From: Candidatus Latescibacterota bacterium
GTDB lineage: Bacteria; Latescibacterota; UBA2968
DNA length: 64,000 nt
Assembly (NCBI GenBank): GCA_022823725.1
Contig: JAJEHL010000023.1
Coordinates: 65,561-129,560 of the forward strand
Direction: 5' to 3'
Shown here: piece by piece, positions 1,351-53,050 of the stretch
Numbering within the stretch: the stretch's first letter is position 1
Layout of the letters: each line of letters starts with the position of its first letter
Notes under the pieces: generated by a model
The model's input: the letters and a program-made list of their open reading frames with translations, nothing else
What the model was told of the DNA's origin: nothing
Databases searched by the model: none
Translations under genes and position numbers: made by a program

Positions 1351-1431
1351 GTCAGGCCGCCCAGCCCCGAGTCTCCAGCCTCAGTCCCTCGCCTTTCATC
1401 TGCGATCATCTGCGGATACTTCTCGCCTCTC
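1351..1431. repeat. Intergenic modular repeat, copy R1 (5' module plus 3' module, core hairpin absent)
   Basis: ...cccagccccgagtctccagcctcagtccctcgcctttcatctgcgatcatctgcggatacttctc. It shares the cccagcc...tttcatctgc and catctgcggata(c)ttc modules with the copies at 18569-18652, 24005-24045, 34049-34190 and 52895-53050. Confidence 0.55.
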
Positions 1432-1575
1432 AAATAACAAAACGATCTTCGCATTGTCAATGCACTATCGACGAGATCAAACATACTTACAACCGCTTGA
1501 CGCCCTTCCCCGACCAACGTACATTGCCTATTCCAGCATAACACCGTCTTTCACCTTTTAAGAACAGATATTGCC

Positions 1576-2622
1576 ATGACCATACACAACCTCGACACAC
1601 CTGCGCTCACCATCGACCTCGATATTCTCGAAAAAAATATTCGAGAAACGCAAGAAGCGTGCGACAAATGCGACATTCCCCTGCGCGTACACACCAAAAC
1701 GCACAAAATCCCCGAAATCGCCAAAATGCAACTCGCTGCGGGAGCCATTGGCATTGTCTGCCAAAAAGTGGGCGAAGCCGAAGCTATGGTTGAAGCGGGC
1801 ATTCCCGACATCCTCATCCCCTATAATATCGTCGGCCCCCTCAAAGTCAAACGCCTCGCCGAACTGTGCAAACGCGCCACCATGACCCTTGCCGTCGATT
1901 CGGAAATCACCGCACGTGGTCTATCCGATGGCGCAAAAGAAAACCACGTCACCATCAACATCCTCATCGAATGCGACACCGGAGGCAATCGCTGCGGCGT
2001 ACAATCGCCCAAAGCCGCGCTTGAACTCGCACAAAAGGTTACAACCATGCCCGGCCTCCAGTTCCAGGGCATCATGACCTATCCCAGTCACGAACGCGCC
2101 AAAGCCTTCATTGACCAAACGCGCGATCTGCTTCAAAACGCGGGCATCGCGCTCAACACCATCAGCGGAGGTGGCACGGGCACTGCCGAAGTTTCCAAAG
2201 CCATCGGCTGTACCGAAACCCGCATTGGATCCTACGTCTTTGAGGGCCTACGCCGCATCAACCGCGAACACAACCCGCCCAACCCCATCACCTGTGCCGA
2301 ACGCATGATTGTCACCATCGTCAGCACACCCACACCTGACCGCGTCATCATCGATGGTGGGCAAAAAACATTTACCAGTTATGCCCCCACCCCTTATGGA
2401 TACATCGTTGAACACCCCCATGCCAAAATCTACGGCATGTCCGTCGAACACGGTCACGTCGATGTCTCAGAATGCAACCACACCTTCACCGTAGGTGACC
2501 GCCTCTCCGTCATTCCCTTGCACCAGGGCATGACCACCAACCTCCACGACGAAGTCTATGCCGTGCGAAATGGCAATGTAGAATACAGATGGAAAGTTGC
2601 CGGGCGCGGTAAAGTGCAATAA
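1576..2622 (+). CDS. PLP-dependent D-serine dehydratase-like / D-threonine aldolase family enzyme (alanine racemase N-domain fold)
   Basis: 348 aa. TPALTIDLDILEKNI...RVHTKTHK carries the PLP-lysine context typical of the DSD1 / COG3616 family. There is a C-terminal beta domain. Confidence 0.7.
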   Translation: MTIHNLDTPALTIDLDILEKNIRETQEACDKCDIPLRVHTKTHKIPEIAKMQLAAGAIGIVCQKVGEAEAMVEAGIPDILIPYNIVGPLKVKRLAELCKRATMTLAVDSEITARGLSDGAKENHVTINILIECDTGGNRCGVQSPKAALELAQKVTTMPGLQFQGIMTYPSHERAKAFIDQTRDLLQNAGIALNTISGGGTGTAEVSKAIGCTETRIGSYVFEGLRRINREHNPPNPITCAERMIVTIVSTPTPDRVIIDGGQKTFTSYAPTPYGYIVEHPHAKIYGMSVEHGHVDVSECNHTFTVGDRLSVIPLHQGMTTNLHDEVYAVRNGNVEYRWKVAGRGKVQ

Positions 2623-2642
2623 AAAACATTCGGGAAAAAACT

Positions 2643-5006
2643 ATGTCCAAACAACCAAATAAATTAACCAGACGCAAAGCAATCGCTGGCATTGGTATCA
2701 GCGGCATTGTTCTCACACAGCACGCATTGTCTCAGGAGACCACCGTGAACACAACACATAGTGCAACCATAACGCGCTACCCCACCGTACAAGCTATGAA
2801 ATCCGCGCCCGAAATCCGCAAAGACGACTGGGCTGAAACCGCGGGCTTTTACGTTCCCGGCGACGGCGGCGCGGCCCTGTATCACATCGAAAAAACAGAT
2901 GCAAATAGCCAGCCAAACGATGCCGACATCATTGCACTGGACAATGGCACAGTCGCTATCTTGCACGAAAGCGAAGCCGTCAATTACAAAATGTTTGGCG
3001 CGATTGGCGATGGAGAAAACGACGACGGCGTACAAATAACTCTGGCGCATAAATACGCCAATGCGCGCAAAGTCCCAATTGTGAATTTAAGCGGCGAATA
3101 TTGGATCACGCAAACCAATGACATACCCATCAAAACCAACGTCTCCTGGGGGCAAACCACTTTTCACATCGATGAACAGTACAACAGCCAAAGGGAGCCT
3201 CGCTTTGAAATTCTCAACGATCACCCGTCAAAAAAACTCACGCGAGACGAAACCATCAAAGCGGCTTTATTGGAAAATCTAAAACCCGGCGTGCAACTCA
3301 TACCAGAACTGGCGCAATATGCAGGTCATCTTATCATCGCTGAAGATGACGATGATCGCATAGGCATTCGGGCAGGCAATTATTCAAAGGCGGGATGGGG
3401 GCGCGAAGAACTGTTCTACGTTGAAGAAGAGGGCCGTATCATTGGCGATATAGCCTGGGAATTCAAAAACTTCACCGACATCACCGCCATACCCTGCAAC
3501 GACAATTACCTCATCGTCGAAGGCGGCGGATTTTACTTTTCTGGCGACAGCGGAAGCGGTAGATCCTGGCGGTATCACCATCACGGCATCTCTATAAAAC
3601 GCAGCCGCACCATCATCCGCGAACAATGGATGGGCCTGGAAAAAGGGAAAAGCGATATCTCCATGCATCCCCGTCGCGGCTTTTACGTATTCAGCGGTGT
3701 CTATGACGTCACACTGGAAAATATCCGCGCAATGCCCTGGGAGAAAAATCGCGAAGAAAAAGACAGAGTGCTCGGCGCAGGCACCTATGGCATTGGCGGT
3801 GCGCGGATGCTCAATTGCACCTTTCGCAACATCACAGCAGAAGGCGGCTGGGTCGCCTGGGGTGTTTTTGGCACCAACCTCAACAAAAACTTCCGCTTTG
3901 AAAACTGCCACCTTAACCGCATAGACGTGCATTTTCACTGCTGGAACCTCTACATCAGCAACTGCACCATTGGCTTCAAAGGCATCGCCCTGACAGGTGG
4001 CGGTGAACTGGTAATCGAAAACACCACGCGCCACGGCAACTATTTTGTCAACTTCCGACGCGACTATGGCGCCAAATGGGACGGGCACATACGCATCCGC
4101 GGCTGCCGGTTGATGCCCAGCAGCAATGGACGCGTTTCTGTCCTATCCTATCGTCCGTCCGATTTCGATTACCAGTATCCCATAGGCTTTGCACGCACGG
4201 TCACAATCGAAGACCTGCTCATCGATTACAGTGCTGCACCTGCATCAACTGCACCGTGCTGGCTCATGGACACCGTTTCCTTTTCTAAAACCAAAAACAA
4301 CGACCGCCTCTTCTTCCCCCACCGCATTGAATTTCGAAACATCACCGTCGAAGGCAGAAAACAGGGCGTTCGCCTCATCCGCATACCCAACCCACACCAC
4401 TATGACCTGCGTCGCAACGGTGGCTATGATGGCGCGCAACTCCACGCCAACAGCACCCTCATCTGCGACAATGTCCAACTCGAAAAACTCACCCAGGAAA
4501 TTGCCGACGATGACGAACAGGTACACATCCTGATCGGTGGAGAATCAACGATTAGCTATGCCGATGCACTCGCTCTCTATCCCAAAATGCGATTTACCGA
4601 CTGTGAAAATATTAGCGCATACCTGGGCAACTGCATTGCCAGTGCGACTTTTGAACGGTGTAGCCTGAACACCATAACCGCGCCAAATTTGCGGGGCGAA
4701 CTCGTATTTACCGAGTGCCGTCTCCAACCCGACGTAAAAAAAGTACCAGAGCAATTTTATATTTTGCAAAGCACACTGGGCACGCGCTTCACCAACTGCA
4801 CCCTTCACGCCCCCATCGTCAACAGCACCATAAATCCGGACCTGATGGACCGCATGGGCTTTGTCAAAATCAACGAATCTGTACAGCACTACCATCTCAA
4901 CACAGCACTTGGCAATGACGTCATAAACCATCTCAAAAACTCGGGAATCACACTCACACCAGAATTTATCGCCCAACTAAAACTGCACCACGATTTGGAA
5001 TCGTAG
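2643..5006 (+). CDS. Tat-signal secreted right-handed parallel beta-helix protein (pectate-lyase / glycosidase-like fold)
   Basis: 787 aa. N-terminus RRKAIAGIGISGIVL is a twin-arginine signal. The body has many repeated N-x-T / NCT turns and periodic hydrophobics, typical of beta-helix repeats. Confidence 0.55.
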   Translation: MSKQPNKLTRRKAIAGIGISGIVLTQHALSQETTVNTTHSATITRYPTVQAMKSAPEIRKDDWAETAGFYVPGDGGAALYHIEKTDANSQPNDADIIALDNGTVAILHESEAVNYKMFGAIGDGENDDGVQITLAHKYANARKVPIVNLSGEYWITQTNDIPIKTNVSWGQTTFHIDEQYNSQREPRFEILNDHPSKKLTRDETIKAALLENLKPGVQLIPELAQYAGHLIIAEDDDDRIGIRAGNYSKAGWGREELFYVEEEGRIIGDIAWEFKNFTDITAIPCNDNYLIVEGGGFYFSGDSGSGRSWRYHHHGISIKRSRTIIREQWMGLEKGKSDISMHPRRGFYVFSGVYDVTLENIRAMPWEKNREEKDRVLGAGTYGIGGARMLNCTFRNITAEGGWVAWGVFGTNLNKNFRFENCHLNRIDVHFHCWNLYISNCTIGFKGIALTGGGELVIENTTRHGNYFVNFRRDYGAKWDGHIRIRGCRLMPSSNGRVSVLSYRPSDFDYQYPIGFARTVTIEDLLIDYSAAPASTAPCWLMDTVSFSKTKNNDRLFFPHRIEFRNITVEGRKQGVRLIRIPNPHHYDLRRNGGYDGAQLHANSTLICDNVQLEKLTQEIADDDEQVHILIGGESTISYADALALYPKMRFTDCENISAYLGNCIASATFERCSLNTITAPNLRGELVFTECRLQPDVKKVPEQFYILQSTLGTRFTNCTLHAPIVNSTINPDLMDRMGFVKINESVQHYHLNTALGNDVINHLKNSGITLTPEFIAQLKLHHDLES

Positions 5007-5040
5007 CAATAAACCAACTTCTCAAAAGGAGTACTCCGTC

Positions 5041-5940
5041 GTGAGAGACGTACGCTGGGAGCGCATGTTCCCCGATGAACTCGAAGCCGCATTCAAAGCC
5101 TGTCCAGTCGTCTATTTTTCCTATGGCCTGTGCGAACCACACGGCCCACAAAATGCTGTGGGACTCGACGCCCTCAAAGCCCACGGCATTGCCGTTCGCA
5201 CCGCGCACAAACACGGCGGCATCGTCGCCCCACCCGACTACTGGCATATCCACGAAATTGGAGGTTATGCCCTCTGGTCAGAACGCTCGGTTGGCCAACC
5301 TGAACACTCCTGGCTAACCTGTATGCCGCCCTGGCAACACTTTAAAAACATCTGCTATCACATCCGCCAGGCCGATACCCTCGGATTTCACGCGGCTATC
5401 CTTCTCACGGGGCACTACGGCCCCAACTGGCAAGACCTGAAAACCCTGTGCGAACTCATCCAACCCCATGTGGGCACACGCCTGTATAGCCTGCCAGACT
5501 TTGAAGCCAACCAACCCGGCTTTGACAATGACAACAACAGCGGCGGTGACCACGCTGGAAAAGTTGAAACCTCGCTTCTTTGGGCAATTGAACCCGACTG
5601 TGTCGATATCTCTCGTTTACCACCCGAAAGCGAAACCGGTCCGCACTTTGCCATGGGCAAAAATGTCCGCGAATCCAACCGCCAAACAGGCGAACGCATG
5701 GTCAATGACGAAACCGAGTGGCTCGGCAACAAAGTTAGGGAATTACTCGCCGCGTATGAATCGGAAAAACCCACGCAAAAACTTCGCACCTTTGACCAGG
5801 TCGAACACATCTGGGAAACCGTTATCCGCCCCGAATTGCCCAACTTCCGCACCATGCAAACAGCCTGGTCGGAAGACGCCACCCTTCCAGAAGACTCTGT
5901 CTGGTACGCCAACTGGAAAGTGCCAGATCGTGAATTTTAA
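5041..5940 (+). CDS. Creatininase-family amidohydrolase (creatinine amidohydrolase / MftE-like)
   Basis: 299 aa. GTG start with RBS aaggag 10 nt upstream. YGLCEPHGPQNAVGLD matches the creatininase GS-EQHGPHLP-GTD metal-site motif. Confidence 0.7.
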   Translation: MRDVRWERMFPDELEAAFKACPVVYFSYGLCEPHGPQNAVGLDALKAHGIAVRTAHKHGGIVAPPDYWHIHEIGGYALWSERSVGQPEHSWLTCMPPWQHFKNICYHIRQADTLGFHAAILLTGHYGPNWQDLKTLCELIQPHVGTRLYSLPDFEANQPGFDNDNNSGGDHAGKVETSLLWAIEPDCVDISRLPPESETGPHFAMGKNVRESNRQTGERMVNDETEWLGNKVRELLAAYESEKPTQKLRTFDQVEHIWETVIRPELPNFRTMQTAWSEDATLPEDSVWYANWKVPDREF

Positions 5941-5972
5941 TATAAAATTGTCCACTTTTAAGGAGGTACAGT

Positions 5973-8642: not shown

Positions 8643-8672
8643 CCGTCAGCAGTTCTAACACAGGAGATCACC

Positions 8673-9572: not shown

Positions 9573-9587
9573 GCAGAAACGCATCCC

Positions 9588-9625
9588 CAAAACCCCCGAT
9601 AGCTTTGCACTATCGGGGGTTTTTG
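9588..9625. terminator. Bidirectional rho-independent terminator between convergent genes
   Basis: aaaacccccgatagctttgcactatcgggggttttt. A 10 bp GC-rich stem (cccccgatag / ctatcggggg) is flanked by an A-run and a T-run. Confidence 0.6.
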
Positions 9626-9649
9626 TCGTTACTGTGTCACGTACTGAAT

Positions 9650-11026: not shown

Positions 11027-11065
11027 AAGAAAAGTAAGGTTAAAATCGCCACACGGAAGAACATC

Positions 11066-15147: not shown

Positions 15148-15272
15148 GTCTCCTCCACTCATTTTTTGCACATAATGGAACTCTATGTTATGTTTTGAAG
15201 TCTCAACAAAGGTAAGAATTACAACCAGAGACGCAATAAGAATTAAAAATGAAAAATTAAGAATTGAGAATT

Positions 15273-15962
15273 ATGAGCCATCCAAACGCAGCCCTCGCAG
15301 TTCAAAACCTCACCCGCACCTACACGAGCGGGGGGCATCCCCTCACCGTTTTGGACAACGTCACATTCACCATTCCCAAAGGCCAAACCTGTGCGATAGT
15401 AGGACCTTCGGGCAGTGGAAAAACCACGCTACTTGGTCTGTGTGCCGGCCTTGATCGCCCAACATCGGGCACGGTTACCCTTCACAGCATGGCCCTCGAC
15501 AGCCTCGACGAAGATCAACGCGCAGCCGTGCGAAATGAATACGTGGGATTTGTCTTTCAGAGCTTTCAACTCATCCCCACCCTCACCGCCATTGAAAATG
15601 TCGCGGTTCCCCTCGAGCTACGCGGTAAAAACGGTGTGTTTGGCGAAGCGAGAGAATTGCTCGACCGCGTGGGATTGGGCGACCGCTTGACGCATTATCC
15701 CACCCAGCTATCGGGTGGGGAACAACAGCGCGTGGGCATTGCACGCGCCTTTATCAACCAACCGCGCATCCTATTTGCCGACGAGCCTACGGGTAACCTC
15801 GACGCCGACACCAGCCATACCATCGCCAATCTACTCTTTGACCTCAACCGCGAAGCGGGCACAACCCTCATCCTCGTCACACACGATCACGACCTCGCCG
15901 CACGCACGCAGCGCATCATCCACCTGCAAGGTGGAAAAGTGGATCAGGATGTGCAGGATTAA
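15273..15962 (+). CDS. ABC transporter ATP-binding protein (LolD/YbbA/MacB-ATPase-like, COG1136)
   Basis: Walker A GPSGSGKTTLL, Q-loop, signature LSGGEQQRVGIARA, Walker B ILFADEPTGNLD. The ATG at 15273 is the likely start. The track starts at a TTG at 15264. Confidence 0.85.
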   Translation: MSHPNAALAVQNLTRTYTSGGHPLTVLDNVTFTIPKGQTCAIVGPSGSGKTTLLGLCAGLDRPTSGTVTLHSMALDSLDEDQRAAVRNEYVGFVFQSFQLIPTLTAIENVAVPLELRGKNGVFGEARELLDRVGLGDRLTHYPTQLSGGEQQRVGIARAFINQPRILFADEPTGNLDADTSHTIANLLFDLNREAGTTLILVTHDHDLAARTQRIIHLQGGKVDQDVQD

Positions 15963-16006
15963 AGGATGAACAGAATACCCCTCTCCATTCCTAATTCCTA
16001 ATTCTC

Positions 16007-18568
16007 ATGGATCGAATCACCAGCATTAACAATCAAACCTCCAGCCCACTCTTCAACGCATGGACCTGGCGCATGGCCTGGCGCGATAGCCGCACGTATC
16101 GCCGCCGATTGTTGCTCTTTATTTCGTGCATATTGCTCGGCGTGGGTGGGCTCGTCGCAGTTCGCGCTTTGGGCGATAATCTGCAACGCGTTGTCGAAAA
16201 TGAAGCGCGCACACTTTTAGGTGCTGATTTGCGCGTCAGCAGCCAGCGCGCTTTCGCCCCTGCGGTTGATTCCCTATTTAACTCATGGGGTGGGGAGCAA
16301 TCTCGAGAAGTGCGCTTTGCTTCGATGGTCTTTTTTCCCAAAAACGGCGGCACCCGCCTGGTACAGGTGCGCGCACTACAAGGCGACTTTCCCTATTACG
16401 GCACATTTGAAACCAATCCGCTACAAGCGGCGAAGACCTTTCAGCAGACCCATCACGCGCTGCTCGACGAAGGCTTGCTCGTCCAATTTGGGGTTCAGGT
16501 CGGCGATTCCGTGCGAATTGGCCACCACACCTTTGTCATAGGCGGACGCATTACAAACATATCGGGCGAAGCCATGGCCTTTGCCACAGTGGCACCCCGC
16601 GTGTACATTCCCCTATCGCATCTCGATAAAACAGGCCTCATCAAATTTGGCAGTATAGCGTCTTATGTGGCCTATTTTAAGTTTGATAGCAACACGAGAA
16701 TCGGATCCATCCAGCGCGAACTTCGCCCCTATCGCGGGGATCAAAATTTGCGTACTGAAACCGTTAGGAGCCGCCAACAACGCCTCAACCGCATATTGGA
16801 TAATCTCTACATCTTCCTCAGTCTTGTCGCCTTTGCCGCCCTCTTGCTCGGATGTATTGGCGTTGCCAGTGCCATTCACGTCTATACGCGCCAAAAAATA
16901 ACAACCGTCGCCATCCTGCGCTGCATGGGCGCGCAATCGAATCAGATCCTCTGCATTTACGCCATCCAGGCCATCGCACTGGGTCTTATTGGTACGGGCT
17001 GCGGTTCTCTCCTCGGTGTGGGTATTCAGTATCTCTTGCCCGGTGTTCTCGCACAAATCCTGCCTATTGAACTCGATATTCAGTTTTCCTATTGGGCGAT
17101 CATTCAAGGCACCGGCATTGGCCTGAGTCTGTCGCTACTCTTCGCCCTGCTCCCCCTGTTGCCCATTCGCCGCACATCGCCCCTGCACACCTTGCGGGCA
17201 TCTTTTGAAAACGCGCGATCTCAAATAGACCCTCTGCAGCTAATGACCATCGGTGGGATCTGTCTCATTGTCACGGGATTGGGCATTGTGCAAACCAGTA
17301 GCATCAGCGTTGGAATTGGCATTGCCTTCGGGTTTGGCATTGCCTTTGGACTGCTCATAGGAGCATCGTGGCTTATCATCAAAACCGTTCGCCGCTTCTT
17401 TCCCACAACCTGGCAATACGTGTGGCGACAGGGCCTGGCCAATCTCTATCGCCCACACAATCAGACCGTAATTCTCATGCTCGCCCTGGGCCTCGGCACC
17501 TTCCTCATCACCACGCTCTATATTGTGCAACACGCCCTGCTCGCTCAAATCGCCATCGCGGGGAGCGACAACCGCCCCAACTTTGTGCTCGTCGATGTGC
17601 AAACCGATCAGATCGAAGGCGTCAGCGCGTTGCTCCGCAAACAGAGCCTCCCCGTCATCCACCATGCCCCCATCATCACCATGCGTCTGAAGAGCATCAA
17701 AGGTCAAGAGGCGCAATCCTACGGCAGAATACACGACGTGCGTCGCTGGGCAATTCAACGCGAATACCGCTCGACCTATCGCAATCACCTCTTCGACTCA
17801 GAACGTCTCGTAGGCGGCACCTGGATCAATGAGAACTGGACAGAAGAACCCATCCCCGTTTCTTTTGAACGCGACATTGCCCGCTCGCTTCGCGTCTCAC
17901 TTGGCGATACCCTGACCCTCGATGTCCAGGGTGTGCCCATTCAAACCACAGTACAAAGCCTGCGAGAAGTTGACTGGCAGCGCATCCAACCGAACTTTTT
18001 CATCGTCTTTCCCAAAGGCGTACTCGAAACCGCTCCGCAGTTTCACGTCTTGACCACGCGCATAAACACAACGGAACAATCTGCTATTCTACAACGCACG
18101 CTGGTTCAACAATACCCCAATGTCTCGGCTGTTGACCTCGGCCTCATTCTCAAAACTGTTGATGACGTACTCTCACAAATCGCCTTTGTCGTGCGCTTCA
18201 TGGCACTCTTTAGTGTGATTACCGGACTCATTGTGCTAACTGCCGCAGTCACCACCAGCCGCTATCAACGCATCCAGGAAGCCGTTTTGCTGCGTACTCT
18301 GGGGGCCTCTCAAAAACAGATTCGCCGCATATTCTTGCTGGAATACGCCTTCCTGGGCGCACTCGCTACCCTGACGGGACTCATGCTCTCTATTGGCGGA
18401 GCCTGGGCTGTCACCATCTTTATTTTCGACATTCACTTCACCCTGCCCACTGCAGCCCTTGCTGGCGTTTTTGTCCTCGTCACCACGCTCACCATCATTG
18501 TCGGCATGCTCAACAGCCGCGGTATAGCCGACCGTCCTCCACTCGAAATTTTGCGAGGCGAAGTGTGA
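16007..18568 (+). CDS. FtsX-like ABC permease with large periplasmic domains (YbbP-like, COG3127)
   Basis: 853 aa. It has two FtsX-type 4-TM modules, each preceded by a long periplasmic segment. It sits adjacent to the ATPase above. Confidence 0.8.
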   Translation: MDRITSINNQTSSPLFNAWTWRMAWRDSRTYRRRLLLFISCILLGVGGLVAVRALGDNLQRVVENEARTLLGADLRVSSQRAFAPAVDSLFNSWGGEQSREVRFASMVFFPKNGGTRLVQVRALQGDFPYYGTFETNPLQAAKTFQQTHHALLDEGLLVQFGVQVGDSVRIGHHTFVIGGRITNISGEAMAFATVAPRVYIPLSHLDKTGLIKFGSIASYVAYFKFDSNTRIGSIQRELRPYRGDQNLRTETVRSRQQRLNRILDNLYIFLSLVAFAALLLGCIGVASAIHVYTRQKITTVAILRCMGAQSNQILCIYAIQAIALGLIGTGCGSLLGVGIQYLLPGVLAQILPIELDIQFSYWAIIQGTGIGLSLSLLFALLPLLPIRRTSPLHTLRASFENARSQIDPLQLMTIGGICLIVTGLGIVQTSSISVGIGIAFGFGIAFGLLIGASWLIIKTVRRFFPTTWQYVWRQGLANLYRPHNQTVILMLALGLGTFLITTLYIVQHALLAQIAIAGSDNRPNFVLVDVQTDQIEGVSALLRKQSLPVIHHAPIITMRLKSIKGQEAQSYGRIHDVRRWAIQREYRSTYRNHLFDSERLVGGTWINENWTEEPIPVSFERDIARSLRVSLGDTLTLDVQGVPIQTTVQSLREVDWQRIQPNFFIVFPKGVLETAPQFHVLTTRINTTEQSAILQRTLVQQYPNVSAVDLGLILKTVDDVLSQIAFVVRFMALFSVITGLIVLTAAVTTSRYQRIQEAVLLRTLGASQKQIRRIFLLEYAFLGALATLTGLMLSIGGAWAVTIFIFDIHFTLPTAALAGVFVLVTTLTIIVGMLNSRGIADRPPLEILRGEV

Positions 18569-18652
18569 TCCGCAGGCATGTCCCCCGTATAAGCATGTGC
18601 CGTAGGGATGATGCAGATGAAAAAGAAGGGCTGAGGGACAGGGGCTGGTTCG
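18569..18652. repeat. Intergenic modular repeat, copy R5 (reverse orientation relative to R3/R4)
   Basis: The reverse complement reads ccagcccctgtccctcagcccttctttttcatctgcatcatccctacggcacatgcttatacgggggacatgcctgcgga. This matches R3 and R4 modules. It lies between convergent gene ends. Confidence 0.6.
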
Positions 18653-19283: not shown

Positions 19284-19724
19284 TTCATCTCTCCCATTTT
19301 CTCCCTTGACCCCAAATATGAGATTGGCTATATTTTTTGCCGACTGGCCTGTGAAAAAAACAATATTTTTGAAACGCACAGCGTTTCAGCAGTGTTGCCA
19401 TACCAGTCCACGAGGCACCTGCTTGTTCCTTCTGTCGAATTTGGCGATTTGGTGGAGGGACGAGTGGGTGCTTTTTGTTTTTCAGGAAAATTTCAATTTG
19501 TGACTTGATTGGCCCGAAGGCAACCATTTCGTGTACCAAAAAGAAAGGCCCTCGCGCGAGTTCTTGGCGGGACGGCGCGAGGACCCCAGATCACACCGAC
19601 AGGTACATGCGGTGTGTCAATGTTTTTGGGCCAACCTCTTTTCCGTTATGACGAACCCATTAAGTATTGTGTTTCAATAATATACGGGTTTTATACATTC
19701 TGTGTACTACAAATTTGATACAAC

Positions 19725-23994: not shown

Positions 23995-26900
23995 CTACCA
24001 CTCAATCCCTCGCCTTTCATCTGCCCTGCGGATACTTCTCACTTCATAAACCCTGGCAAAGTGCAGAAAATCGCCGAAACCAACCCGGCCATCGGCATCG
24101 AGGTCAAACCGCATATCCGCAGAGCCAAAGGCATTGACAAAGATTGTGAAATCGCTGAAGTCGAGCCGACCATCGGCATTGAAATCGCAGGATATTATTG
24201 CAGGCGCAAGTGGTTGTTCGACGATGTGGAGAACGCGATTGACCGACAAATCGTCGGTCTCACTGCGAAATTCCTGGACAATACCACTGGGCCAGCGCAG
24301 TGTGAGTACCTCGACATATTCGGCTCTGCCCACACCAAACACGGGCGTGAGCGCGTCTTGCGATAAAAAGGACGCGCCGCCTGTGATTTCTCGAATGGCG
24401 CGGCGGTTATTGCCATCTCTGTCTCTGAACGCAATTTCGAGACGCGTGCCAATCGCATCGGGGCTACTTTCCGTACCGCGAAGCCGAATTGCGATCCAGT
24501 TGCCATTGGCCTCGCGATTGCGAAAGAGGGCGTCCGGGCCATTTTGCACGGCGACATAAAAATCGAGTCTCCCATCGTTGTCGTAATCGGCAAGGGCAAC
24601 GCCGCGGCTGTCCGCATTCAGAGCAACGCCCAAAGAATCGGATATGTCGGTGAAATGCCCATCCACATTCTTGTAATACAAATTGGGCTGGCCCCTATTG
24701 GTGACATAGAGATCGAGATCGCCATCGTTGTCAAAATCGCCCCATACCGCGCCTCGGCTTCGTCCATCGTGGGCGAGGCCCAACTCCGTCGCGCGATCTC
24801 TGAACGTGCCATTACCCTCGTTTGTATAACACCTGTTATTCGCGCCAAAATAGGGAATAAACAGATCGAGATCGCCATCGTTGTCAAAATCACCCCAGGC
24901 CGCGCCAAAACTCGGCCCTTCATCGGTGGGATTAAAAATATTTTCTATGGACGCGAAGCGCGCGCCATCATTGCGAAAGAGACGGTTGGGACCGCTATTT
25001 GCCAAAAACAGATCGAGGTCGCCATCGTTGTCAAAATCGCCCCATGCAGGTTGAATCCCACTTTCCGTATCGCTCAGGCCCAGGCTATCCGCCAGTTCGG
25101 AAAAACGGTTGCCATTGTTCTGGAAAAAGCGATTCGCGCCAAAGTTGGCGACGTAAAGGTCGAGATCCCCATCGCGGTCATAATCGCCCCAAGCCGCGCC
25201 ATATCCATCGCCGGAATCGTCAACACCCATCGCCGGCGCCACATCTATAAATCCAGTCCCATCGTTGCGATATAAACGGTTTGGTCCACCAAAATTGGTG
25301 ACGTAGAGGTCGAGATCTCCATCGCGGTCGTAATCGCCCCAGACGCCCGCGCTGCCATCGCCGGAATCGTCAATGCCCAGTGCTGGCGCGACATCCGTAA
25401 ATCCATTCCCGTCATTGCGATATAAACGGTTCGGCTCTCTGCTGCGTACGAGGTAGAGGTCGGGGTCATTGTCGTTGTCGAAATCTGCCCACGCCGCGCC
25501 ATATCCCGCACCCATATCGCCCAAACCCGCGTTGGGGGCCTCATCGACAAATCCGCCGGGTTGGGCGTGTTCCCCAATGCCCTGCAATGTGAGTGTGGCT
25601 GTGGGGTTTGCCAGCGCATTGCTATAAATGGTGAGCGTGGCTTCGTGCTGGCCCTCGGCTTGCGGGCGAAATGCGATGGAAAGCTGCTGGCTTTGCCCCG
25701 CGTCAATCCGCAAGGTATCGGTTTGTTCCACAACAAATTGCGAGTCGGTCGTCGTGGCGTTGGGAACGACCAGCACACCGGCGCCGAGGTTGGAAATGCG
25801 TACCGACAATATTTGAGATCGCCCGGTGAGGGTGGGATCGAAAATTAAGACATCTGAAGGAAAGAGTCCGATATCCGGCTCAGCCCCCAGACCTCGCACA
25901 GTGAAAACGGCAGAAGGGGTGCGCGGATCATCGGTGGTGAGGGTGATACGCCCCTCGACAGCCCCCTGTTCCGCGGGATCAAACACAATTTCAATGTCAG
26001 CGGCTTGGGCAATGCCGATTTCGAGGGGCAATTCTGACAAAACGCGAAACGCGGAGTTATCGGAAATCGCTGTTTCAATGCGAACGGGCACATTGCCCCG
26101 ATTTTCAACGCGCAAACGGCTCACGGTGGGATCGCCAACGCTAACCTCGCCAAAGTCAATATCCGTAGAAATGGCGTTAAAGAGCGGCATTCGGAACGTG
26201 GGATCGCGCAATTTGCGGATGCGATTGTTGGCGGCGTCAATAAAAATGAGATCGCCATTGCCACCAATCAGCAAGTGCGTAGGCTGTCCCAGATCGGACA
26301 GAAGACCGAGTGTATCTTCAGATCCCGCACCCGCAATACCCGTTCCCGCGATGGTCACCACATGGCCCGTTTCCTCTTCGACCACGCGAATGCGATTATT
26401 GTCCGTATCGCCGATATAGATATTGCCGGATTCATCGACAGCAACGCCCAAAGGAGAAAAAAATAAAGCACCTGTCGCTGCCCCACCATCGCCCTTATAG
26501 AGATCTTCTGACAGATTTTCCGAAGAGGTCGCGTCCCGCCCGGCGACGGTGTTGATCACGGCGACGACGGTTGTGTCTTGTATGGCCCTGCTAACGCGCC
26601 GAATGCGTCCATTGTTAAAATCGGCAATCAAAAGATCGCCCTGACCTGTCACAGCCAATTGCCCAGGCGTTAAACCCGCCCGAGTTGCCAGCCCGCCATC
26701 CTGAATATTCGACGCCCGGGCACTGCCATTGCCCGCGATTGTACCTATGGTATTATTCGCCAGATTGAATTGCCGCACGCGATTGTTGCCCTGTCCATTC
26801 TCATCGAGACTATCGGAGATTAAAAGAGCGACATCGCCCAACATCTCCAGCGCGACAATTTCGTGGAACGTAGCTTGTAGCGCGGGTACCAGATCATTGA

Positions 26901-33355: not shown

Positions 33356-34048
33356 TCACTCCACGAACATACCAATGCGCCGCCAGCGCACGCGCTCGGG
33401 AAAGTGAAACAGATTATAGAGCGCGATACCGAATAGAGACGTCATGTTGCTATATGCGGGGACGCGATCATCAGGTGCCCAGGACCAGTAGAGAATAAAT
33501 GCTTTTCCCCGCATGAGATCGCGCTTGAGAAAACCCCAGTATCGACTGTCTTCACTGCTGTCGCGGTTGTCGCCCATCACGAAATAGCAGTCTTCGGGCA
33601 CGATCTTAGGTCCGTAATTATCCCGCGTATTGGCCACCGATCTCCGCTTGAGAATAACAGAATCGATATATTTAGCCCTGGATGGATCAATCGCGCGCTT
33701 GTCGTCAACATAAAGGATTTTATCTTTTATTTCAACTTTCTGTCCGGGTCCTGCTACAATGCGTTTGATAAAGTCGCGGGATGGATCTCTGGGATACTGA
33801 AAAATAACAATATCTCCGGGATCTGGCGAACGCCACGCGGGCAGTCGAATGTCGGTAAAGGGAATGCGAGCGCCGTAAATAAATTTATTCGCCAACAAAA
33901 AATCGCCGACCAGCAAAGTGTTTTCCATCGATCCTGAAGGAATGCGAAATGCCTGCACGACAAATATGCGAATAAAAAGCGCGAGTGCAAACGCGAGTAA
34001 GATGGCCTTGATATATTCAATAGTCACGGATTTTTTCATAATTAGCAA
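33356..34048 (-). CDS. lepB: Signal peptidase I
   Basis: 230 aa. N-terminal TM, SGSMENTLLVGDFLL (Ser box B) and the GDNRDSSEDSRYWG box E. Confidence 0.85.
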   Translation of the reverse strand: MLIMKKSVTIEYIKAILLAFALALFIRIFVVQAFRIPSGSMENTLLVGDFLLANKFIYGARIPFTDIRLPAWRSPDPGDIVIFQYPRDPSRDFIKRIVAGPGQKVEIKDKILYVDDKRAIDPSRAKYIDSVILKRRSVANTRDNYGPKIVPEDCYFVMGDNRDSSEDSRYWGFLKRDLMRGKAFILYWSWAPDDRVPAYSNMTSLFGIALYNLFHFPERVRWRRIGMFVE

Positions 34049-34190
34049 CCAGCAGTCAGTCCCCTAATCCCAGCCCTATTTTTCATCTGCATTCATCCCT
34101 GCTTACACCCGCAGAGCCTGCCCCGTAGTGTTTTTATACGGGGGACATGCCTGCGTGCATCTGCGTACATCTGCGGATCACACTTCCATC
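34049..34190. repeat. Intergenic modular repeat, copy R3 (full-length) between lepA and lepB
   Basis: agtcagtcccctaatcccagccctatttttcatctgcattcatccctgcttacacccgcagagcctgccccgtagtgtttttatacgggggacatgcctgcgtgcatctgcgtacatctgcggatcacacttcc. Contains the ccccgta/tacgggg hairpin. The start of lepA is placed at 34178 from the ORF track, so the last 13 bp of this element overlap lepA's 3' end. Confidence 0.6.
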
Positions 34191-37145: not shown

Positions 37146-37180
37146 TGATCGCGGATTAAAGCGGGGCGCAGATAAAGCGG

Positions 37181-41351: not shown

Positions 41352-41363
41352 GGAATATAGCCC

Positions 41364-43379: not shown

Positions 43380-43440
43380 TAAATAGTAGCTTTGGGGCAG
43401 TGTTCACAAGGCTAAAATAACCTTCTCACAAACGCGTTTT

Positions 43441-44349: not shown

Positions 44350-44375
44350 TGGGCATATTGCGCTAAGAGATACTT

Positions 44376-45665: not shown

Positions 45666-45751
45666 TTGCACTGTCCAAAAAGAAAAACGGAACTCGAGTT
45701 GGGCAAAAACGTTTTTGACAAAGTATAAATAAGCAAAGGAGGTCGGCAAAG

Positions 45752-46234: not shown

Positions 46235-46238
46235 TGCA

Positions 46239-47234: not shown

Positions 47235-47301
47235 AATCAGTGAGACGTGAAAAGTAAAACGTGAGAGGGGTAGGGGGGCGTCTTACCTTTTACCGATTCC
47301 C

Positions 47302-48183: not shown

Positions 48184-48193
48184 GGAGCAAAAC

Positions 48194-49120: not shown

Positions 49121-49893
49121 TGGGCAATATAATGGCGATTTTTGGCAAAGAGATGCGGTCGTATTTTGGCTCGCCAATTGCTTATGTGATGGCCGGTGTG
49201 TTTTTGCTATTTAGCGGCTTTGTTTTTCGCAATCAGTTGCTCGAATTTCACGATATGTCCGTATATCTGAAATTGGCAGAACGCGAAGAAAAAATTCTAT
49301 TAAATGTCAATACAGAAGTCGTCACGCCATTTTTTGAATTTCAGACTTTTATCTGGATGATTGTGATTCCAATGCTCACGATGCGTCTCTACGCTGAGGA
49401 AAAACGCGGGGGTACGTATGAGTTATTGATGACCTCGCCGATTACTTCAGCACAAATTTTGATAGGAAAATTTCTCGCTTGTTATGTATTGTATTTGCTA
49501 ATCGAAGCAATGGCCTTCGGCTATATTGGCGTGTTATCTATGCACGCGCAATTGGACTGGGGGCCCATTTTTTCCGGCGCGCTGGCTGTGGTGCTGATTG
49601 GCGCCACATTTATCAGCGTGGGCATTTTGGCGTCGTCTTTGACCGAAAATCAGATTATCGCGGCTGTGTTGTCTTTTTTCTTTTTAATTCTATTGTGGAT
49701 TATCGACTGGGCCGCGTGGTTTGCCAGCGACATATTTTTTGTTATTTTAAAATTTCTCTCCCTCATCGAACACACCCGAGACATGATTCACGGTGTTGTC
49801 GATACCCACGACGTGGTATTTTTTATTAGTGCTGCGGCTTTTTTTCTTTTTTTAACACATATAGTGCTCGAATCGCGCAGGTGGCGAGCTTAG
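49117..49893 (+). CDS. ABC-2 family permease (GldF-like)
   Basis: 258 aa, six TM. The conserved MTRL-AEEKRGTYELL motif is present as TMRLYAEEKRGGTYELLMTSP. Its start overlaps the ATPase stop. Confidence 0.7.
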   Translation: MMGNIMAIFGKEMRSYFGSPIAYVMAGVFLLFSGFVFRNQLLEFHDMSVYLKLAEREEKILLNVNTEVVTPFFEFQTFIWMIVIPMLTMRLYAEEKRGGTYELLMTSPITSAQILIGKFLACYVLYLLIEAMAFGYIGVLSMHAQLDWGPIFSGALAVVLIGATFISVGILASSLTENQIIAAVLSFFFLILLWIIDWAAWFASDIFFVILKFLSLIEHTRDMIHGVVDTHDVVFFISAAAFFLFLTHIVLESRRWRA

Positions 49894-49906
49894 GAAGGAC
49901 ACGATT

Positions 49907-50902
49907 ATGAAAATCGGTATTATGGGCATGCACTACGGACATATAAGCGGTATGTTTCACTCGGCGGTCAGCGCGCCAAATGGTGAAATTGTCGGCATTG
50001 TAGAATCCGATGACGCGCTTTGCAAAAAATATACCGCAGACCACAACATCACCCGCTTTGCCACACTTGAGCAGATGCTTGAAAAAGCAAAACCCGACCT
50101 GGTAATTGAGGGTCTCGAACATCACGAAAAAACGCCTGTCATCGAAACGTGTGCCGCAGCTGGTGCCCACATGCTACTCGACAAACCGCTCTGCCGAACG
50201 ACGGAAGAATTACAGCGCATCAAAACTGCTGTAGCAAAAAACAATATTAAACTCTCCACCTTTTTCACCTCTCGCCGTTATGGGGCATTTATCGCATTGA
50301 GACAGGCGATTCAAAACGGCGATTTGGGTGACCTCATAAGCCTCATCACCACCCATCCGCACAAACTCGGCGCAAATCCCCCCGGACTCTACTTCAATGC
50401 AGACAAATATGTGGGTACATTCCACGATTTGGCAGGCCACGGCGTGGATCAAATTCGCTGGCTCACCGGCGCAGAATACACGGGGGTTCACGCGCTCGGC
50501 ACACTCAAGAAACACATCGACACGGGTCTCACATTCGATCACGTCCAGGCTTCGTTTCAACTCGACAATGGCGCACTTGCCACCGCCACTGCCGATTGGC
50601 TCACCCCAAACGATGCGCGATCTTTTGGCGACACGCGATTCATTATTATGGGCACCGAAGGCTCTGCACACTTGCGCGCCTATGCCGACGATCACGTACT
50701 CATTGTCTCCAACAAATCGGGCACTTACGAACCCAAACTCCCTTCCTCGACCAATCAGGCATTTGTTGAAAATATGATCGATGCACTCGCGCGCGGCGAA
50801 GAAAACTCAATCTCAACAGATGATACCCTCGCCGTTGCCAATGCCTGCATTACAGCCGAAGAATCGGCGCGAGAAGGTGGAAAATTTCTATCGATCAGAT
50901 AG
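49907..50902 (+). CDS. Gfo/Idh/MocA family oxidoreductase
   Basis: 331 aa. N-terminal Rossmann KIGIMGMHYGH and an EKP motif LLDKPL. Confidence 0.8.
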   Translation: MKIGIMGMHYGHISGMFHSAVSAPNGEIVGIVESDDALCKKYTADHNITRFATLEQMLEKAKPDLVIEGLEHHEKTPVIETCAAAGAHMLLDKPLCRTTEELQRIKTAVAKNNIKLSTFFTSRRYGAFIALRQAIQNGDLGDLISLITTHPHKLGANPPGLYFNADKYVGTFHDLAGHGVDQIRWLTGAEYTGVHALGTLKKHIDTGLTFDHVQASFQLDNGALATATADWLTPNDARSFGDTRFIIMGTEGSAHLRAYADDHVLIVSNKSGTYEPKLPSSTNQAFVENMIDALARGEENSISTDDTLAVANACITAEESAREGGKFLSIR

Positions 50903-50910
50903 GGATGCAC

Positions 50911-50943
50911 AAAAAAACAGTAGCAGGACATTGCCTGCTACTG
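50911..50943 (-). terminator. Rho-independent terminator for the minus-strand Rieske-fusion gene
   Basis: cagtagcagg-acattg-cctgctactg 10 bp stem. aaaaaaa precedes it on the plus strand, giving a T-run on the minus strand. Confidence 0.5.
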
Positions 50944-50977
50944 CCTGTTCAGCCCTCTGCCTTCACCTGAGCCTTGC

Positions 50978-52825
50978 CTAATTATCATCATCCCGCTCGC
51001 TTAGCAGTTCCCCGCGCTGCAGCCGCTCCGCGTTCTCCGTGGACCACAGAATCCCCTTCATCACCTTCTGGGCGGTAATATACCGGGTCGCCGCGAGAAG
51101 GTGCATGCGTTTCTCCTCCGGATCGTCCGACAGGTCGTAGTGCCGGAACGCCACCTCCAGCACCTGGAACATGTGCAACTCCGCATCCTCGCGCAGCATA
51201 ATGTGGGCCAAAGTCTGCCTGAGTTTCGCGATATCGTACCCTTCCTCCATGTACTGGCTTACCAGCACCTCAGCCTCGAAGACCTTCTGGAAATCCGCAA
51301 ACTCCTGTAGCCGATCCAACATCTCGTCCTCAGACGCGAACGGCTCGTCCAACCGTTGTCCTTCCCTGGGCAGGCGGGCCGCTGGCATGTTGAGCCAGCG
51401 CAAATAGGTCATAAACACAGCGCCGTGGAAAATGCCGCGCAAAAGCTCTTTGCTCGGCGCCAGGTGGAAAGCGCGATAGAGGGCATGGGCGTAAGAGTAA
51501 ATATTTGCCACATCGTGCCAGTCTCCCTCATTCTTGAGGTGGAACCGCGCCGTGCGGATGGCCCCGGCATAGGTCATCGCCCGGCAGATATCCGTGGGCT
51601 TCACACCCTCGCGCAGTTTGTCTTCAATCTCGGCGACAATCGGCTCGAACTCCTCCCCCAGCAGCGTCTGAGTAAAAGCAGAAATATCCAGCGGTGCCTC
51701 ATTCTCCTGGTTCGCTTCCCACATCTCGTCCAGACGAGTGAAAATATCTTCCAGGACCGGCACGCTGTCTTCCCACCGGGCGGTCTCCTCGTGTCGTTCC
51801 CTGCCCACTAAATCTACCACAATCGGTCTCAAAATCTCATTGGCCCCTTCCCAATCTACATAATCTAAGGCCTCGAACATCTTATTCGCGAAATCGAGCG
51901 CGTGACCGTCCCCGGTAAAATAAAAGTCCGTCGCCGTGGTAAAAACGACATCTGCAATCTCTTCTGGTGAATATCCACGGTCGTACATGGTCATCAGAAT
52001 ACGCTGTGCTGCGCTGCTGCTGCGCTGATCTACCAGCCGCCGAAACCAGCGTTTGAGAGTCTCCAGGTCCGGTTCGTCCGATGTTTTGGGCAAAGGGAAA
52101 CCCTGTCGCCGCGAACCTCCTGATGTGCGTCTGGAAATCTGCGTCAGCCCGTGGACCAGGAAAAGATTGTGGTCCTTCTCATCTACATCTCCCCACATAT
52201 TTGCAGCCAGCGTCAAAATAGCCACCCCCGATGACCAACCCTCATTCGATTTATATGCTCCGTAAAAAAGTCCCTGCTGGATCATCTCCTGCGGCGTGGC
52301 GCCCGCAGCCCTTAGCGCGGTAATCGCCTTGGCAATCAGGAGCGAGCTCCGATCTTTCAAACCCTGCTCAAGAATATACTTGCCCCGGTCAATCCGCCGG
52401 CGTCTGGCCGCCTCTTTTTCGCCCGGCGCAAGCCCCACGTACAGACACCCGTCCTCCCGCACCTCCACGGGAAAGCTCTTCAGATCGTTTCCAGCTCCGG
52501 AGGTTATAAAACAGCCGCCCGTCTTAAGGTCGAACTCCCAGTGATGCCAGTGACAGATCAGGACCCCGTCCCGAACACTGCCCTCGGACATCGGATATCC
52601 CATGTGCGGACAGCGGTTATCCACTGCATTGAACCTCCCCTCGTAGCGAAAAACGGCGATGTGGGTGCCCTCCACCGTAAAAGGTTTCCCTTCGCCTTCT
52701 GCAAAATCATCAGCAGAGCACAATTTGTAATACACCAGATTGCTCGGATCCACCTCCGGAGAAACATCCAGGGTCATATCCCCGTCCTTGAGTCGATCCT
52801 GGAAACTTTGAGTAGCGATAGCCAT
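50978..52825 (-). CDS. Rieske [2Fe-2S] domain protein fused to a large (about 470 aa) uncharacterised all-alpha C-terminal domain
   Basis: The N-terminus has CPHMGYP...CHWHHWEF (CxH...CxxH Rieske ligands). The remainder is acidic and helical with no motif I recognise. The ATG at 52825 has RBS ggaggt. The track ORF extends to 52891. Confidence 0.7.
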   Translation of the reverse strand: MAIATQSFQDRLKDGDMTLDVSPEVDPSNLVYYKLCSADDFAEGEGKPFTVEGTHIAVFRYEGRFNAVDNRCPHMGYPMSEGSVRDGVLICHWHHWEFDLKTGGCFITSGAGNDLKSFPVEVREDGCLYVGLAPGEKEAARRRRIDRGKYILEQGLKDRSSLLIAKAITALRAAGATPQEMIQQGLFYGAYKSNEGWSSGVAILTLAANMWGDVDEKDHNLFLVHGLTQISRRTSGGSRRQGFPLPKTSDEPDLETLKRWFRRLVDQRSSSAAQRILMTMYDRGYSPEEIADVVFTTATDFYFTGDGHALDFANKMFEALDYVDWEGANEILRPIVVDLVGRERHEETARWEDSVPVLEDIFTRLDEMWEANQENEAPLDISAFTQTLLGEEFEPIVAEIEDKLREGVKPTDICRAMTYAGAIRTARFHLKNEGDWHDVANIYSYAHALYRAFHLAPSKELLRGIFHGAVFMTYLRWLNMPAARLPREGQRLDEPFASEDEMLDRLQEFADFQKVFEAEVLVSQYMEEGYDIAKLRQTLAHIMLREDAELHMFQVLEVAFRHYDLSDDPEEKRMHLLAATRYITAQKVMKGILWSTENAERLQRGELLSERDDDN

Positions 52826-52894
52826 AACCATACCTCCGCAAAATAGTGGCCTAAATTTACGATTCAATAGAAAATATACTGCAATTGCCATACG

Positions 52895-53050
52895 CGGTCA
52901 ATCCATCAGCCTCTCGCTTCTCATCTGTGGATATCTGCGTCCATCCCTGCTTACACCCGCAGAGCCTGCCCCGTAGTATTTGCCGTATAGAATCATTACG
53001 GCACATGCTTATACGGGGGACATGCCTGCGGATACCTCCCGCCTTTCACT
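52895..53050. repeat. Intergenic modular repeat, copy R4 (full-length with about 30 bp insertion)
   Basis: ...tctcatctgtggatatctgcgtccatccctgcttacacccgcagagcctgccccgtagtatttgccgtatagaatcattacggcacatgcttatacgggggacatgcctgcggatacctcccgcctttcac. Nested palindromes gccgta/tacggc and ccccgta/tacgggg. Confidence 0.6.

Follow-up and report, generated by a model that had tools for sequence, protein, structure and literature searches.

A hairpin-bearing mosaic repeat of variable make-up between the genes of Candidatus Latescibacterota

Do the short, palindrome-bearing sequences that recur between genes of an uncultured Candidatus Latescibacterota bacterium belong to one repeat family, and if so, how did they come to lie where they are? 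The stretch that raises this question (the window, 64,000 nt, contig JAJEHL010000023.1, positions 65,561 to 129,560) is part of a 156-kb metagenome scaffold (ENA ERZ23491381, scaffold_129). Its genes are ordinary chromosomal ones, among them lepA, lepB, dnaB, radA, coaBC, gmk and genes for ABC transporters and for sugar and amino-acid enzymes; none is a transposase, integrase or phage gene. An earlier note on this DNA had placed five copies at 1351-1431, 18569-18652, 24005-24045, 34049-34190 and 52895-53050. These coordinates are right, and all five copies (named below by their first position) align as one family. Pairwise alignment gave 94% identity over 49 nt between 34085-34133 and 52933-52981, and 18568-18609 is the reverse complement of 52992-53033 with 95% identity over 42 nt. 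The segment 1380-1403 matches 24001-24024 at 96% over 24 nt, and the right ends of these two copies agree at 84% over 25 nt. Three matches of the core 19-mer TACGGGGGACATGCCTGCG were found in the window (0.03 expected), as were three of the 17-mer CCTCGCCTTTCATCTGC (0.24 expected). The repeat family is real and lies far above chance level. With a probability of about 0.6, we take it to be a non-coding, non-autonomous, lineage-restricted mosaic repeat of the kind of repetitive extragenic palindromes (REPs) and bacterial interspersed mosaic elements (BIMEs), or of BOX elements: a selfish sequence moved in trans.

The distribution of the core was determined with the exact 19-mer in GTDB contigs, one genome per species, so that all counts are minima. 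It occurred at 23 sites, 22 of them in four Latescibacterota metagenome-assembled genomes (MAGs); the remaining one, in a Polyangiaceae MAG (L012; L002 to L034 denote loci or regions fetched from other genomes for comparison with the window), was rejected as a chance match in unrelated surrounding sequence. Counts of the exact 19-mer were six in OZ244847.1 (5.7 Mb), three in CBDDPH010000002.1 (4.7 Mb), seven in JAJEAX and eight in JAJDYX, the last two being fragmented MAGs; the window holds three in 64 kb. An nhmmer profile added one diverged copy (L002, 225-280) and several partial copies. Similarity is not confined to short motifs, as the whole unit of ~75 nt aligns at 84-99%: relative to the lepA-lepB core of the window, identity is 94-99% in OZ244847, JAJEAX and JAJDYX and 84-88% in CBDDPH. 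The three CBDDPH copies share a variant of their own (...CCCTGTTTTCACAGAGCC..., loop GTGCTTTAATA), and each deeper lineage likewise has its own core variant. In short-read assemblies, cores were found at contig ends (L010, L011, L014 and L026), as expected of a multi-copy repeat, which again makes the exact-match counts minimum figures.

Viral contigs contained no match to the family, and 10 kb more of the same scaffold beyond the window held no additional copy. A scan of JGI metagenomes with the pattern CCTGCCCCGTAGN{4,34}TACGGGGGAC returned a single match, an unrelated chance sequence that the profile does not recognise. Rfam 15 gave no match at gathering score in the window, and lenient scans of two copies yielded microRNA-model noise far below threshold. 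A literature search on Latescibacteria and REP terms retrieved no relevant report of repeats in Latescibacterota. The family is restricted to one genus-level clade of Candidatus Latescibacterota and has not been described before. The earlier view of a dispersed, modular, palindrome-bearing and possibly lineage-specific family was borne out by 22 further full-length copies in the four Latescibacterota MAGs and nowhere else searched.

We describe the anatomy of the repeat on the strand opposite to the + strand of the window (the sense strand), which is the coding strand of the flanking genes in the two informative cases of the window. A purine-rich lead-in (GAGAAGTA or GAAGTG(T)GA) is followed by TCCGCAG, a number of decamers ATGNACGCAG (CATCTGCGTN on the + strand), an optional core, more decamers and a degenerate G-rich tail. 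The tail (ATGAAAGGCGAGGGAYTGAG..., GGGCTGG..., GGACTGACTRCT) resembles progressively degenerate units, and the number of decamers changes fast between relatives, like a variable-number tandem repeat. The 54-nt core reads GCATGTCCCCCGTATAAAAACACTACGGGGCAGGCTCTGCGGGTGTAAGCAGGG (window 34097-34150, reverse) and nearly always has at least one decamer remnant on either side. Together with the adjoining CCGCAG, it forms a predicted hairpin of ~15 bp (CCGCAG/CTGCGG, GC/GC, CCCCGTA/TACGGGG) that has one bulge and one internal loop and spans ~47 nt. The family consensus folds at -27.5 kcal/mol on the + strand (z = -2.6) and at -28.0 kcal/mol on the other (z = -1.6); for the 52895 copy the value is -47.2 kcal/mol (z = -3.3). 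That copy and L008, L010, L013 and L016 carry a nested 27-nt palindrome, GCCGTATAGAATCATTACGGCACATGC, in the hairpin loop, and no occurrence of this palindrome was found outside cores.

Among relatives, the same site differs in content. Of the sequenced relatives, the Candidatus Latescibacterota MAG OZ244847.1 is nearest, with 93.9% identity to the window over 8 kb. Pairwise identity among the window and the syntenic regions L028 and L030 is ~88-89%, which makes a roughly equidistant trio; L029 is ~79% identical, and L034 and L033 are farther away, with Wzz-like proteins 78% and 60% identical to that of the window, respectively. Between lepA and lepB, the window has a spacer of 138 nt (two decamers, core, one decamer and tail), L028 one of 137 nt (~8-9 decamers without core), L033 one of 35 nt (a CTGACCC heptamer array), and in L030 the spacer is empty with 5 nt (gaagtgtga/ggaaa/atg). 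The FtsX/GDSL site holds the 18569 copy in the window, GAAGTNA heptamers in L028 and only 6 nt between the stops in L030 (empty). At the FG-GAP/Sua5 site, we found the short 24005 copy in the window, decamers plus tail in L028, four GAAGTGA heptamers in L030 and tail-like sequence in opposite orientation in L029. Two insertions are confined to single relatives, a 39-nt decamer/tail insertion at the MetE-like/FG-GAP site of L030 and a 35-nt decamer array (ATCCGCAGATGGACGCAGATAGACGCAGATAAATG) at the RecD2/GDSL site of L028 (20110-20225, ortholog of window about 19600-19660). The 52895 copy and its ortholog in OZ244847.1 (L008) are both nested, and the 33-nt decamer/tail segment is missing in the ortholog. 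Empty, decamer-only and decamer-plus-core states are thus seen at the same position among relatives that are ~88-94% identical. Orthologous cores diverge about as fast as the flanking intergenic DNA; given this rate and the lack of the element in close relatives, individual copies show no sign of strong selection. The lepA-lepB spacer of the more distant L034 (3447-4211) measures 765 nt and is full of REP-like hairpins and decamer-like units, with a different hairpin, so that repeats seem to build up in this spacer time and again across the clade.

Filled and empty sites were compared to read the junctions exactly. The position of the core is always a decamer boundary, GCAG^ATG, or CATC^TGCG on the other strand. 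Behind a GyrB/ParE-like gene, L009 (OZ244847.1) reads GTATCCGCAG/ATGAACGCAG/ATGGGCACAG/ATAAACAG. In its ortholog L015 (JAJDYX), 94% identical, the first of these boundaries is occupied by the full 54-nt core and the second by a core that has lost its hairpin, GCATGTTCCTGCGGGTGTAAGCAGGG. The lepA-lepB core of the window lies between ATGCACGCAG and ATGAATGCAG, the same boundary as in L009/L015. No target duplication was detected at core junctions in this filled-versus-empty comparison, where only 1 nt is ambiguous. Slippage between direct repeats does not explain a junction with no duplicated target and one ambiguous base. Written on the + strand, CCTGC...CATGCC is inserted at CATC^TGCG, and every junction and decamer then has C^TGCG. 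Where a locus has more than one core, the cores follow one another in tandem without a change of orientation (L015 and L022, each with a partial and a full core). A lone inverted pair of cores lies 2.1 kb apart around the 630-aa GyrB/ParE-like gene of L015 (3234-5499, ortholog of L009). This gene is followed by one for a D12-class adenine methyltransferase, and its bracketing by cores is probably a coincidence.

Over 20 unrelated loci in four species share a near-identical, non-repetitive 54-nt core, the nested subfamily has spread, the lineages have variants of their own, and orthologous sites are filled in some relatives and empty in others; together, these facts show a sequence that reaches new places by copying, can be lost again and does not arise in place. 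The nested subfamily is present at no fewer than three (that is, at least three) non-orthologous loci, L010/L013 and L016 besides 52895/L008. We infer that an enzyme acting in trans would bring about the movement, a HUH/Y1 enzyme that works on single strands and recognises hairpins, either of the REP-associated tyrosine transposase (RAYT) or of the IS200/IS605 type. The action of HUH/Y1 enzymes produces neither inverted ends nor a target duplication; they cut a short specific sequence beside a hairpin and can add tandem units. Their chemistry fits the repeat because inverted ends and target duplications are lacking at the cores, a fixed short site adjoins the hairpin, the stem is mismatched and the number of units is variable. 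In E. coli, RAYT acts on a REP only if the tag and a mismatch in the stem are present; it cleaves at C^T and is able to add units in tandem (PMC3333891). In the relatives, classical GTAG-tagged REP-like palindromes (GTAGGGGCGR...YCGCCC) stand beside decamer arrays in the same orientation, so that a REP 'ecosystem' exists in this clade. Effects on neighbouring genes would be a by-product and not what the family exists for; candidates are a stable hairpin in the lepA-lepB transcript, the C-terminal tail of the FG-GAP protein and altered spacing upstream of promoters. The GTAG-tagged palindromes, GTAGGGGCG(R)...(Y)CGCCC, make up a second repeat family, which often follows directly after decamer arrays or cores and has no member in the window.

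Several observations weigh against movement by such an enzyme. Pfam searches identified no Y1/RAYT or other transposase in the window, in the 10 kb beyond it or beside the 22 cores, and tblastn with IS200 TnpA and E. coli RAYT (approximate queries) on ~335 kb returned nothing. The associated transposase that the earlier note had proposed to look for was not found in the ~404 kb examined in total. The copy number is low for a REP, with 3-8 exact cores per genome (an undercount from exact 19-mers) against usually more than 100, some REP families having 20-100 or fewer. The tag by the hairpin is GCAG and not GTAG, and it can pair with the downstream CTGC. The decamer array of L028 at the RecD2/GDSL site is flanked by an unusually long target duplication of 37-40 nt, which a HUH model does not predict and the other models do not account for either; there, window and L030 agree on the uninterrupted sequence, with neither array nor duplication. 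Exact presence and absence could in principle also reflect precise deletion instead of insertion. A CRISPR-like reading of the repeat(38)-insert(35)-repeat(40) arrangement in L028 was rejected, as the 'spacer' is the family's own decamer array and no cas genes are nearby.

A more specific proposal, which we put forward only tentatively and hold to be rather doubtful, is that the 54-nt hairpin may represent a new REP-like class which transposes as single-stranded DNA into the C^T decamer boundary by means of a HUH/RAYT-type enzyme of Latescibacterota. Decamer arrays would then be both landing pads and cut-and-rejoin by-products, and the 37-40-nt duplication would be a trace of repair.

The copies in the window differ in make-up and setting (Table 1), and here the earlier note was corrected in several points. 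The forms it had described exist, but its labels were mismatched to its own list of coordinates. Thus, the palindromic internal insertion is present, its carrier being 52895-53050 and its length 27 nt (52982-53008); the coreless copies are 1351-1431 and 24005-24045; and the copy without the first half of the core is 18569-18652. Two copies had been placed between gene ends, which holds for the 18569 copy alone, between the convergent stops of an FtsX/MacB-type gene (18568) and a GDSL lipase gene (18657). Divergent gene starts flank the copies at 1351 and 52895; the genes on either side of the 24005 and 34049 copies are co-directional. Nor is the family strictly intergenic. The 24005 copy falls within a 1122-aa FG-GAP/ASPIC open reading frame (ORF; stop 23995) and supplies the last 16 codons of this FG-GAP/ASPIC/NHL protein (tail ...SIRRADERRGIEW, then stop); its relatives' proteins stop earlier, at differing points, so that the C-terminus is rewritten by the repeat. 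In the supposed 3' module (34049-34190 and 18569-18652), 'cacacttc' consists of the final codons of lepA and of the FtsX-type gene. It persists where a relative has an empty site, and the conserved end proper is CTGCGGAT. The 12-mer CTCCTGCATGCC (200-211 and 59239-59250), which had been reported alongside the family, is unrelated and can be put down to chance (two or more matches in 12 of 100 shuffles), and its copy at 59239-59250 is the loop of an ordinary hairpin-plus-T-run terminator.

Table 1. Positions of repeat copies in the window and of accompanying repeats in the window and related regions
Feature	Sequence	Position	Strand	Remarks
Core of the lepA-lepB copy	window	34097..34150	-	+ strand reads CCCTGCTTACACCCGCAGAGCCTGCCCCGTAGTGTTTTTATACGGGGGACATGC; hairpin arms 34109-34127 and 34137-34155
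Whole composite, lepA stop (34178) to lepB start (34039)	window	34040..34177	-	TCCGCAG, 2 decamers, core, 1 decamer, tail GGGCTGGGATTAGGGGACTGACTGCTGG
Core of the 52895 copy	window	52945..53025	-	nested palindrome GCCGTATAGAATCATTACGGCACATGC at 52982-53008 in hairpin loop
Whole composite between divergent Rieske-protein and ATP-grasp genes	window	52902..53041	-	includes 33-nt decamer/tail segment 52902-52934
Inverted, internally deleted derivative of the nested subfamily	window	18568..18652	+	keeps right hairpin half only
Coreless copy	window	1347..1434	-	two decamers (1397-1417) flanked by GAGAGGCGAGAAGTA and GAAAGGCGAGGGACTGAGG... modules
Short coreless copy	window	24001..24050	-	88% like the 1351 copy; inside 3' end of the 1122-aa FG-GAP/ASPIC ORF
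Possible sixth, degenerate mini-copy tgaTCGCGGATtaaagcggGGCGCAGATAaagcgg	window	37146..37180	+	between YicC-like and guanylate kinase genes; weak assignment
GTAG-tagged palindrome	L002	~3754		
GTAG-tagged palindrome	L004	~1613		
GTAG-tagged palindrome	L018	~6281		
GTAG-tagged palindrome	L011	~3608		
GTAG-tagged palindrome	L016	~2020		
GTAG-tagged palindromes	L034	3473, 3559, 10691, 16076, 16112		
Tandem heptamers	window	15237-15273, 15987-16004		
Tandem heptamers	L005			
Tandem heptamers	L028	15707-15730, 20930-20959		
Tandem heptamers	L030	15616-15649		
Tandem heptamers	L033			lepA-lepB spacer

Across the family, only one or two cores fall within long ORFs; the distance from a core to a stop codon is often 0-20 nt, and a TGA stop directly abuts TCCGCAG at lepA and the FtsX-type gene of the window and in L016 and L019. 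The genes beside cores have unrelated housekeeping or metabolic functions. In its arrangement CAT^CTGCGGAT / TTTCATCTGCGATCAT^CTGCGGATAC, the coreless 1351 copy looks like an unoccupied landing pad. Most of the possible mini-copy at 37146-37180 is missing in L028 and L030, where a spacer of 8-9 nt separates the called genes. The 52895 copy has promoter-like sites on both sides, TTGACC-17-TATATT at 52901-52873 (-) and TTGACA-17-TATTAT at 53060-53088 (+). Lying between two good divergent promoter matches of the sigma-70 type, this copy is probably not transcribed, and mRNA stabilisation, which the earlier note had considered, cannot be the general role of the repeat. These matches score 10/12 and 11/12, and the left -35 box abuts the variable 33-nt segment. 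A role in termination was not supported: no terminator-like hairpin-plus-U-tract was found in the copies at 34049, 18569 and 1351, and the only such site near 52895 belongs to the promoter region and not to the element. A promoter signature of the repeat was likewise not found. Ordinary terminators do occur elsewhere in the genome, as in the spacers 9573-9649 and 58016-58085 (identified by eye). A riboswitch or leader was considered, as four of the five window copies are upstream of a - strand gene, and dropped: these genes (GFO/IDH/MocA oxidoreductase, Sua5/YciO, signal peptidase and Rieske protein) are unrelated, and two of the contexts are divergent spacers and thus uninformative.

Could the repeat instead be a functional cis-acting RNA element under selection, such as a 3'-end stabilising hairpin, an operon decoupler or a protein-binding array on mRNA? 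The hairpin is stable, many copies begin right behind a stop codon, and the words GCAGAUG, CAGGAUG and CAGGGAUG recall CsrA-type sites. Moreover, 9 of the 12 cores between co-directional genes are in sense orientation, on the gene strand (binomial p about 0.15), a mild lean and not a rule, and three stem changes (CGCAG to CACAG in L006/L017 and in the CBDDPH variant, GAGCC to GAACC in L008) produce G.U on the gene-sense strand and A.C on the other. One stem change goes the opposite way (L015a), however, so that three events versus one are a hint only, and three of the 12 informative copies are antisense. The element is dispensable, as close relatives do without it at the same sites; the flanking genes have no common function, the 52895 copy is probably untranscribed, orthologous copies evolve at the flanking rate and no Rfam family matches. 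Covariation is absent, with nearly all of the 15 pairs invariant because the copies are too alike, which is uninformative for or against. An RNA element under selection is therefore unlikely in our judgement; the sense-strand lean and the three G.U-compatible stem changes may leave room for a secondary effect at the RNA level. We give still less credence to a binding platform at the DNA level, comparable to BIMEs that serve IHF or gyrase. A unit of 10 nt equals one helical turn, so that the motif would always face the same side of the DNA; promoters lie downstream of the copies at 1351 and 52895, and BIMEs are known as protein-binding sites (PMC2817692). Yet unit number and presence vary freely among close relatives, many copies separate co-directional genes so tightly coupled in translation that one would expect no promoter there, and nothing points to a binding protein.

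Among explanations that involve other routes of origin, the earlier note had also named a miniature inverted-repeat transposable element (MITE). A classical one would be moved by the DDE transposase of a resident insertion sequence (IS), with the hairpin arms as terminal inverted repeats. The core does consist of two ~20-nt inverted arms around a short loop, and one relative (L034) has IS630-like DDE_3/HTH_32 gene fragments. The label did not survive the comparison of filled and empty junctions, which lack a target-site duplication, nor that of the composite ends (TCCGCAG... and ...GGACTGACT), which are not inverted repeats, the hairpin being a lone one. Coreless, decamer-only copies also turn up at new sites, the element is not AT-rich, and no IS with matching ends (CCCTGCTTAC.../...GACATGC) was seen; a classical MITE is thus very unlikely. 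Without any mobility, the copies would be independent, local, microsatellite-like expansions of easily expanding words. The spacers of the clade are indeed full of tandem words (GAAGTGA, GACTACT, GGCTGGA, AATTAGG, CTGACCC), and unit numbers differ between relatives. But an independent origin of the 54-nt core and the 27-nt insertion, near-identical at more than 20 unrelated loci in four species, is impossible. Local expansion is therefore contradicted for the core, possible for the heptamer arrays only, and as an account of the family the least credible of all, with hardly any probability left to it.

Returning to a mobile mosaic repeat, we asked which known system it resembles. REP/BIME is closest in behaviour and logic, and BOX is closest in architecture. 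The REP/BIME likeness drawn by the earlier note is apt for architecture and behaviour, as the repeat is a mosaic, has a variable number of tandem units per locus and lies outside genes for the most part. REP/BIME sequences (PMC3333891, PMC2817692, PMC3733652, PMC3116915) are likewise extragenic imperfect palindromes with a mismatched stem, in mosaics with other motifs. Further shared features are a tandem unit number that varies among strains, lineage subfamilies, the lack of terminal inverted repeats and target duplication, a G(T/C)AG that abuts the hairpin on one strand and junctions that can all be written as C^T. The tag of a REP, however, is an unpaired GTAG (or degenerate GYAG) or CGTC at one end of the stem. 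Here, GCAG (the GYAG form, able to pair) directly precedes the hairpin on the sense strand, its invariance being forced by the 19-mer search, and GTAG is present on the other strand of every copy, but inside the stem-loop boundary (CCCCGTAGTG). Unlike the usual REP of 20-40 bp (PMC3733652), the hairpin is longer (~47 nt, ~15 bp). Whereas BIMEs are alternating inverted pairs with defined linkers, cores are single or in same-orientation tandem, and their embedding in a 10-nt tandem array has no BIME counterpart. Because of the low copy number, the atypical, pairing GCAG tag, the lack of alternating pairs and the failure to find a RAYT, or a RAYT gene flanked by the repeats (REPtron), in the ~404 kb examined, membership in REP/BIME is not established.

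The likeness to BOX (S. pneumoniae, S. suis; boxA-boxB(n)-boxC; PMC3049150) is one of architecture, and a relationship in sequence is not expected. Both combine end modules with variable tandem internal modules, are intergenic, form a stem-loop, have no convincing dedicated transposase and can extend or create ORFs, here in the FG-GAP tail made by the 24005 copy. They differ in sequence and belong to unrelated phyla; the module is 10 nt here versus ~45 nt in BOX, which also has terminal inverted repeats and a far higher abundance. With miniature elements derived from IS200/IS605 (PMC3333891, PMC6006769), the repeat shares dependence on a hairpin, the absence of inverted ends and target duplication, a fixed short insertion site and precise excision. 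Those elements have two different subterminal hairpins, in contrast to one here, and no TnpA was found in the searches described above. Cyanobacterial STRR heptamers, mycobacterial MIRUs and neisserial mosaic elements are short tandem intergenic units, often oriented with transcription, with a strain-variable number and a mosaic structure. Their unit sequences and lengths differ from those of the present repeat, and none is known to join a 10-nt array with a conserved hairpin at unit boundaries. The neisserial intergenic mosaic elements (NIMEs) are also mentioned in PMC3049150.

The repeat is of practical consequence in that it breaks short-read assemblies of these uncultured bacteria, as shown by cores at contig ends, and alters the ends of genes and the spacing within operons (lepA and lepB are 5 nt or 138 nt apart; the tail of the FG-GAP protein is changed). 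Its copies are variable markers for strain typing in metagenomes. Dispersed palindromic mosaic repeats are common in bacteria, and the family adds no new category of biology. The clean filled-versus-empty junctions in a 10-nt array do provide a tidy case for target choice and unit addition by a REP-like hairpin, and target choice and tandem addition of BIMEs are still argued. If transposition as single-stranded DNA were true, target, element and tandem amplification would all be open to direct reading by genome comparison in a natural system.

Other features of the window and its relatives deserve mention. Short tandem heptamers (TAAGAAT/AATTAGG, GAAGTGA, GACTACT, CTGACCC) occur across the spacers of the clade (Table 1) and recall cyanobacterial STRR. 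In the spacer between the RecD2-like and GDSL lipase genes (19535-19640, - strand), ~95 nt (acaccgcatgtacctgtcggtgtgatctggggtcctcgcgccgtcccgccaagaactcgcgcgagggcctttcttttt) are identical in the window, L028 and L030, although these genomes are ~88% identical. The segment folds into two hairpins followed by a T-run, has no relevant Rfam match and is a candidate small RNA or terminator-containing leader. At 59407-60531, the 579 nt behind a truncated 181-aa Pyr_redox_2 ORF hold no long ORF, and this stretch may be a decayed oxidoreductase gene. Finally, at 53060-58015, genes annotated by Pfam as circularly permuted ATP-grasp, Alpha-E and transglutaminase-like occur as two sets in a row and form a conserved cluster.

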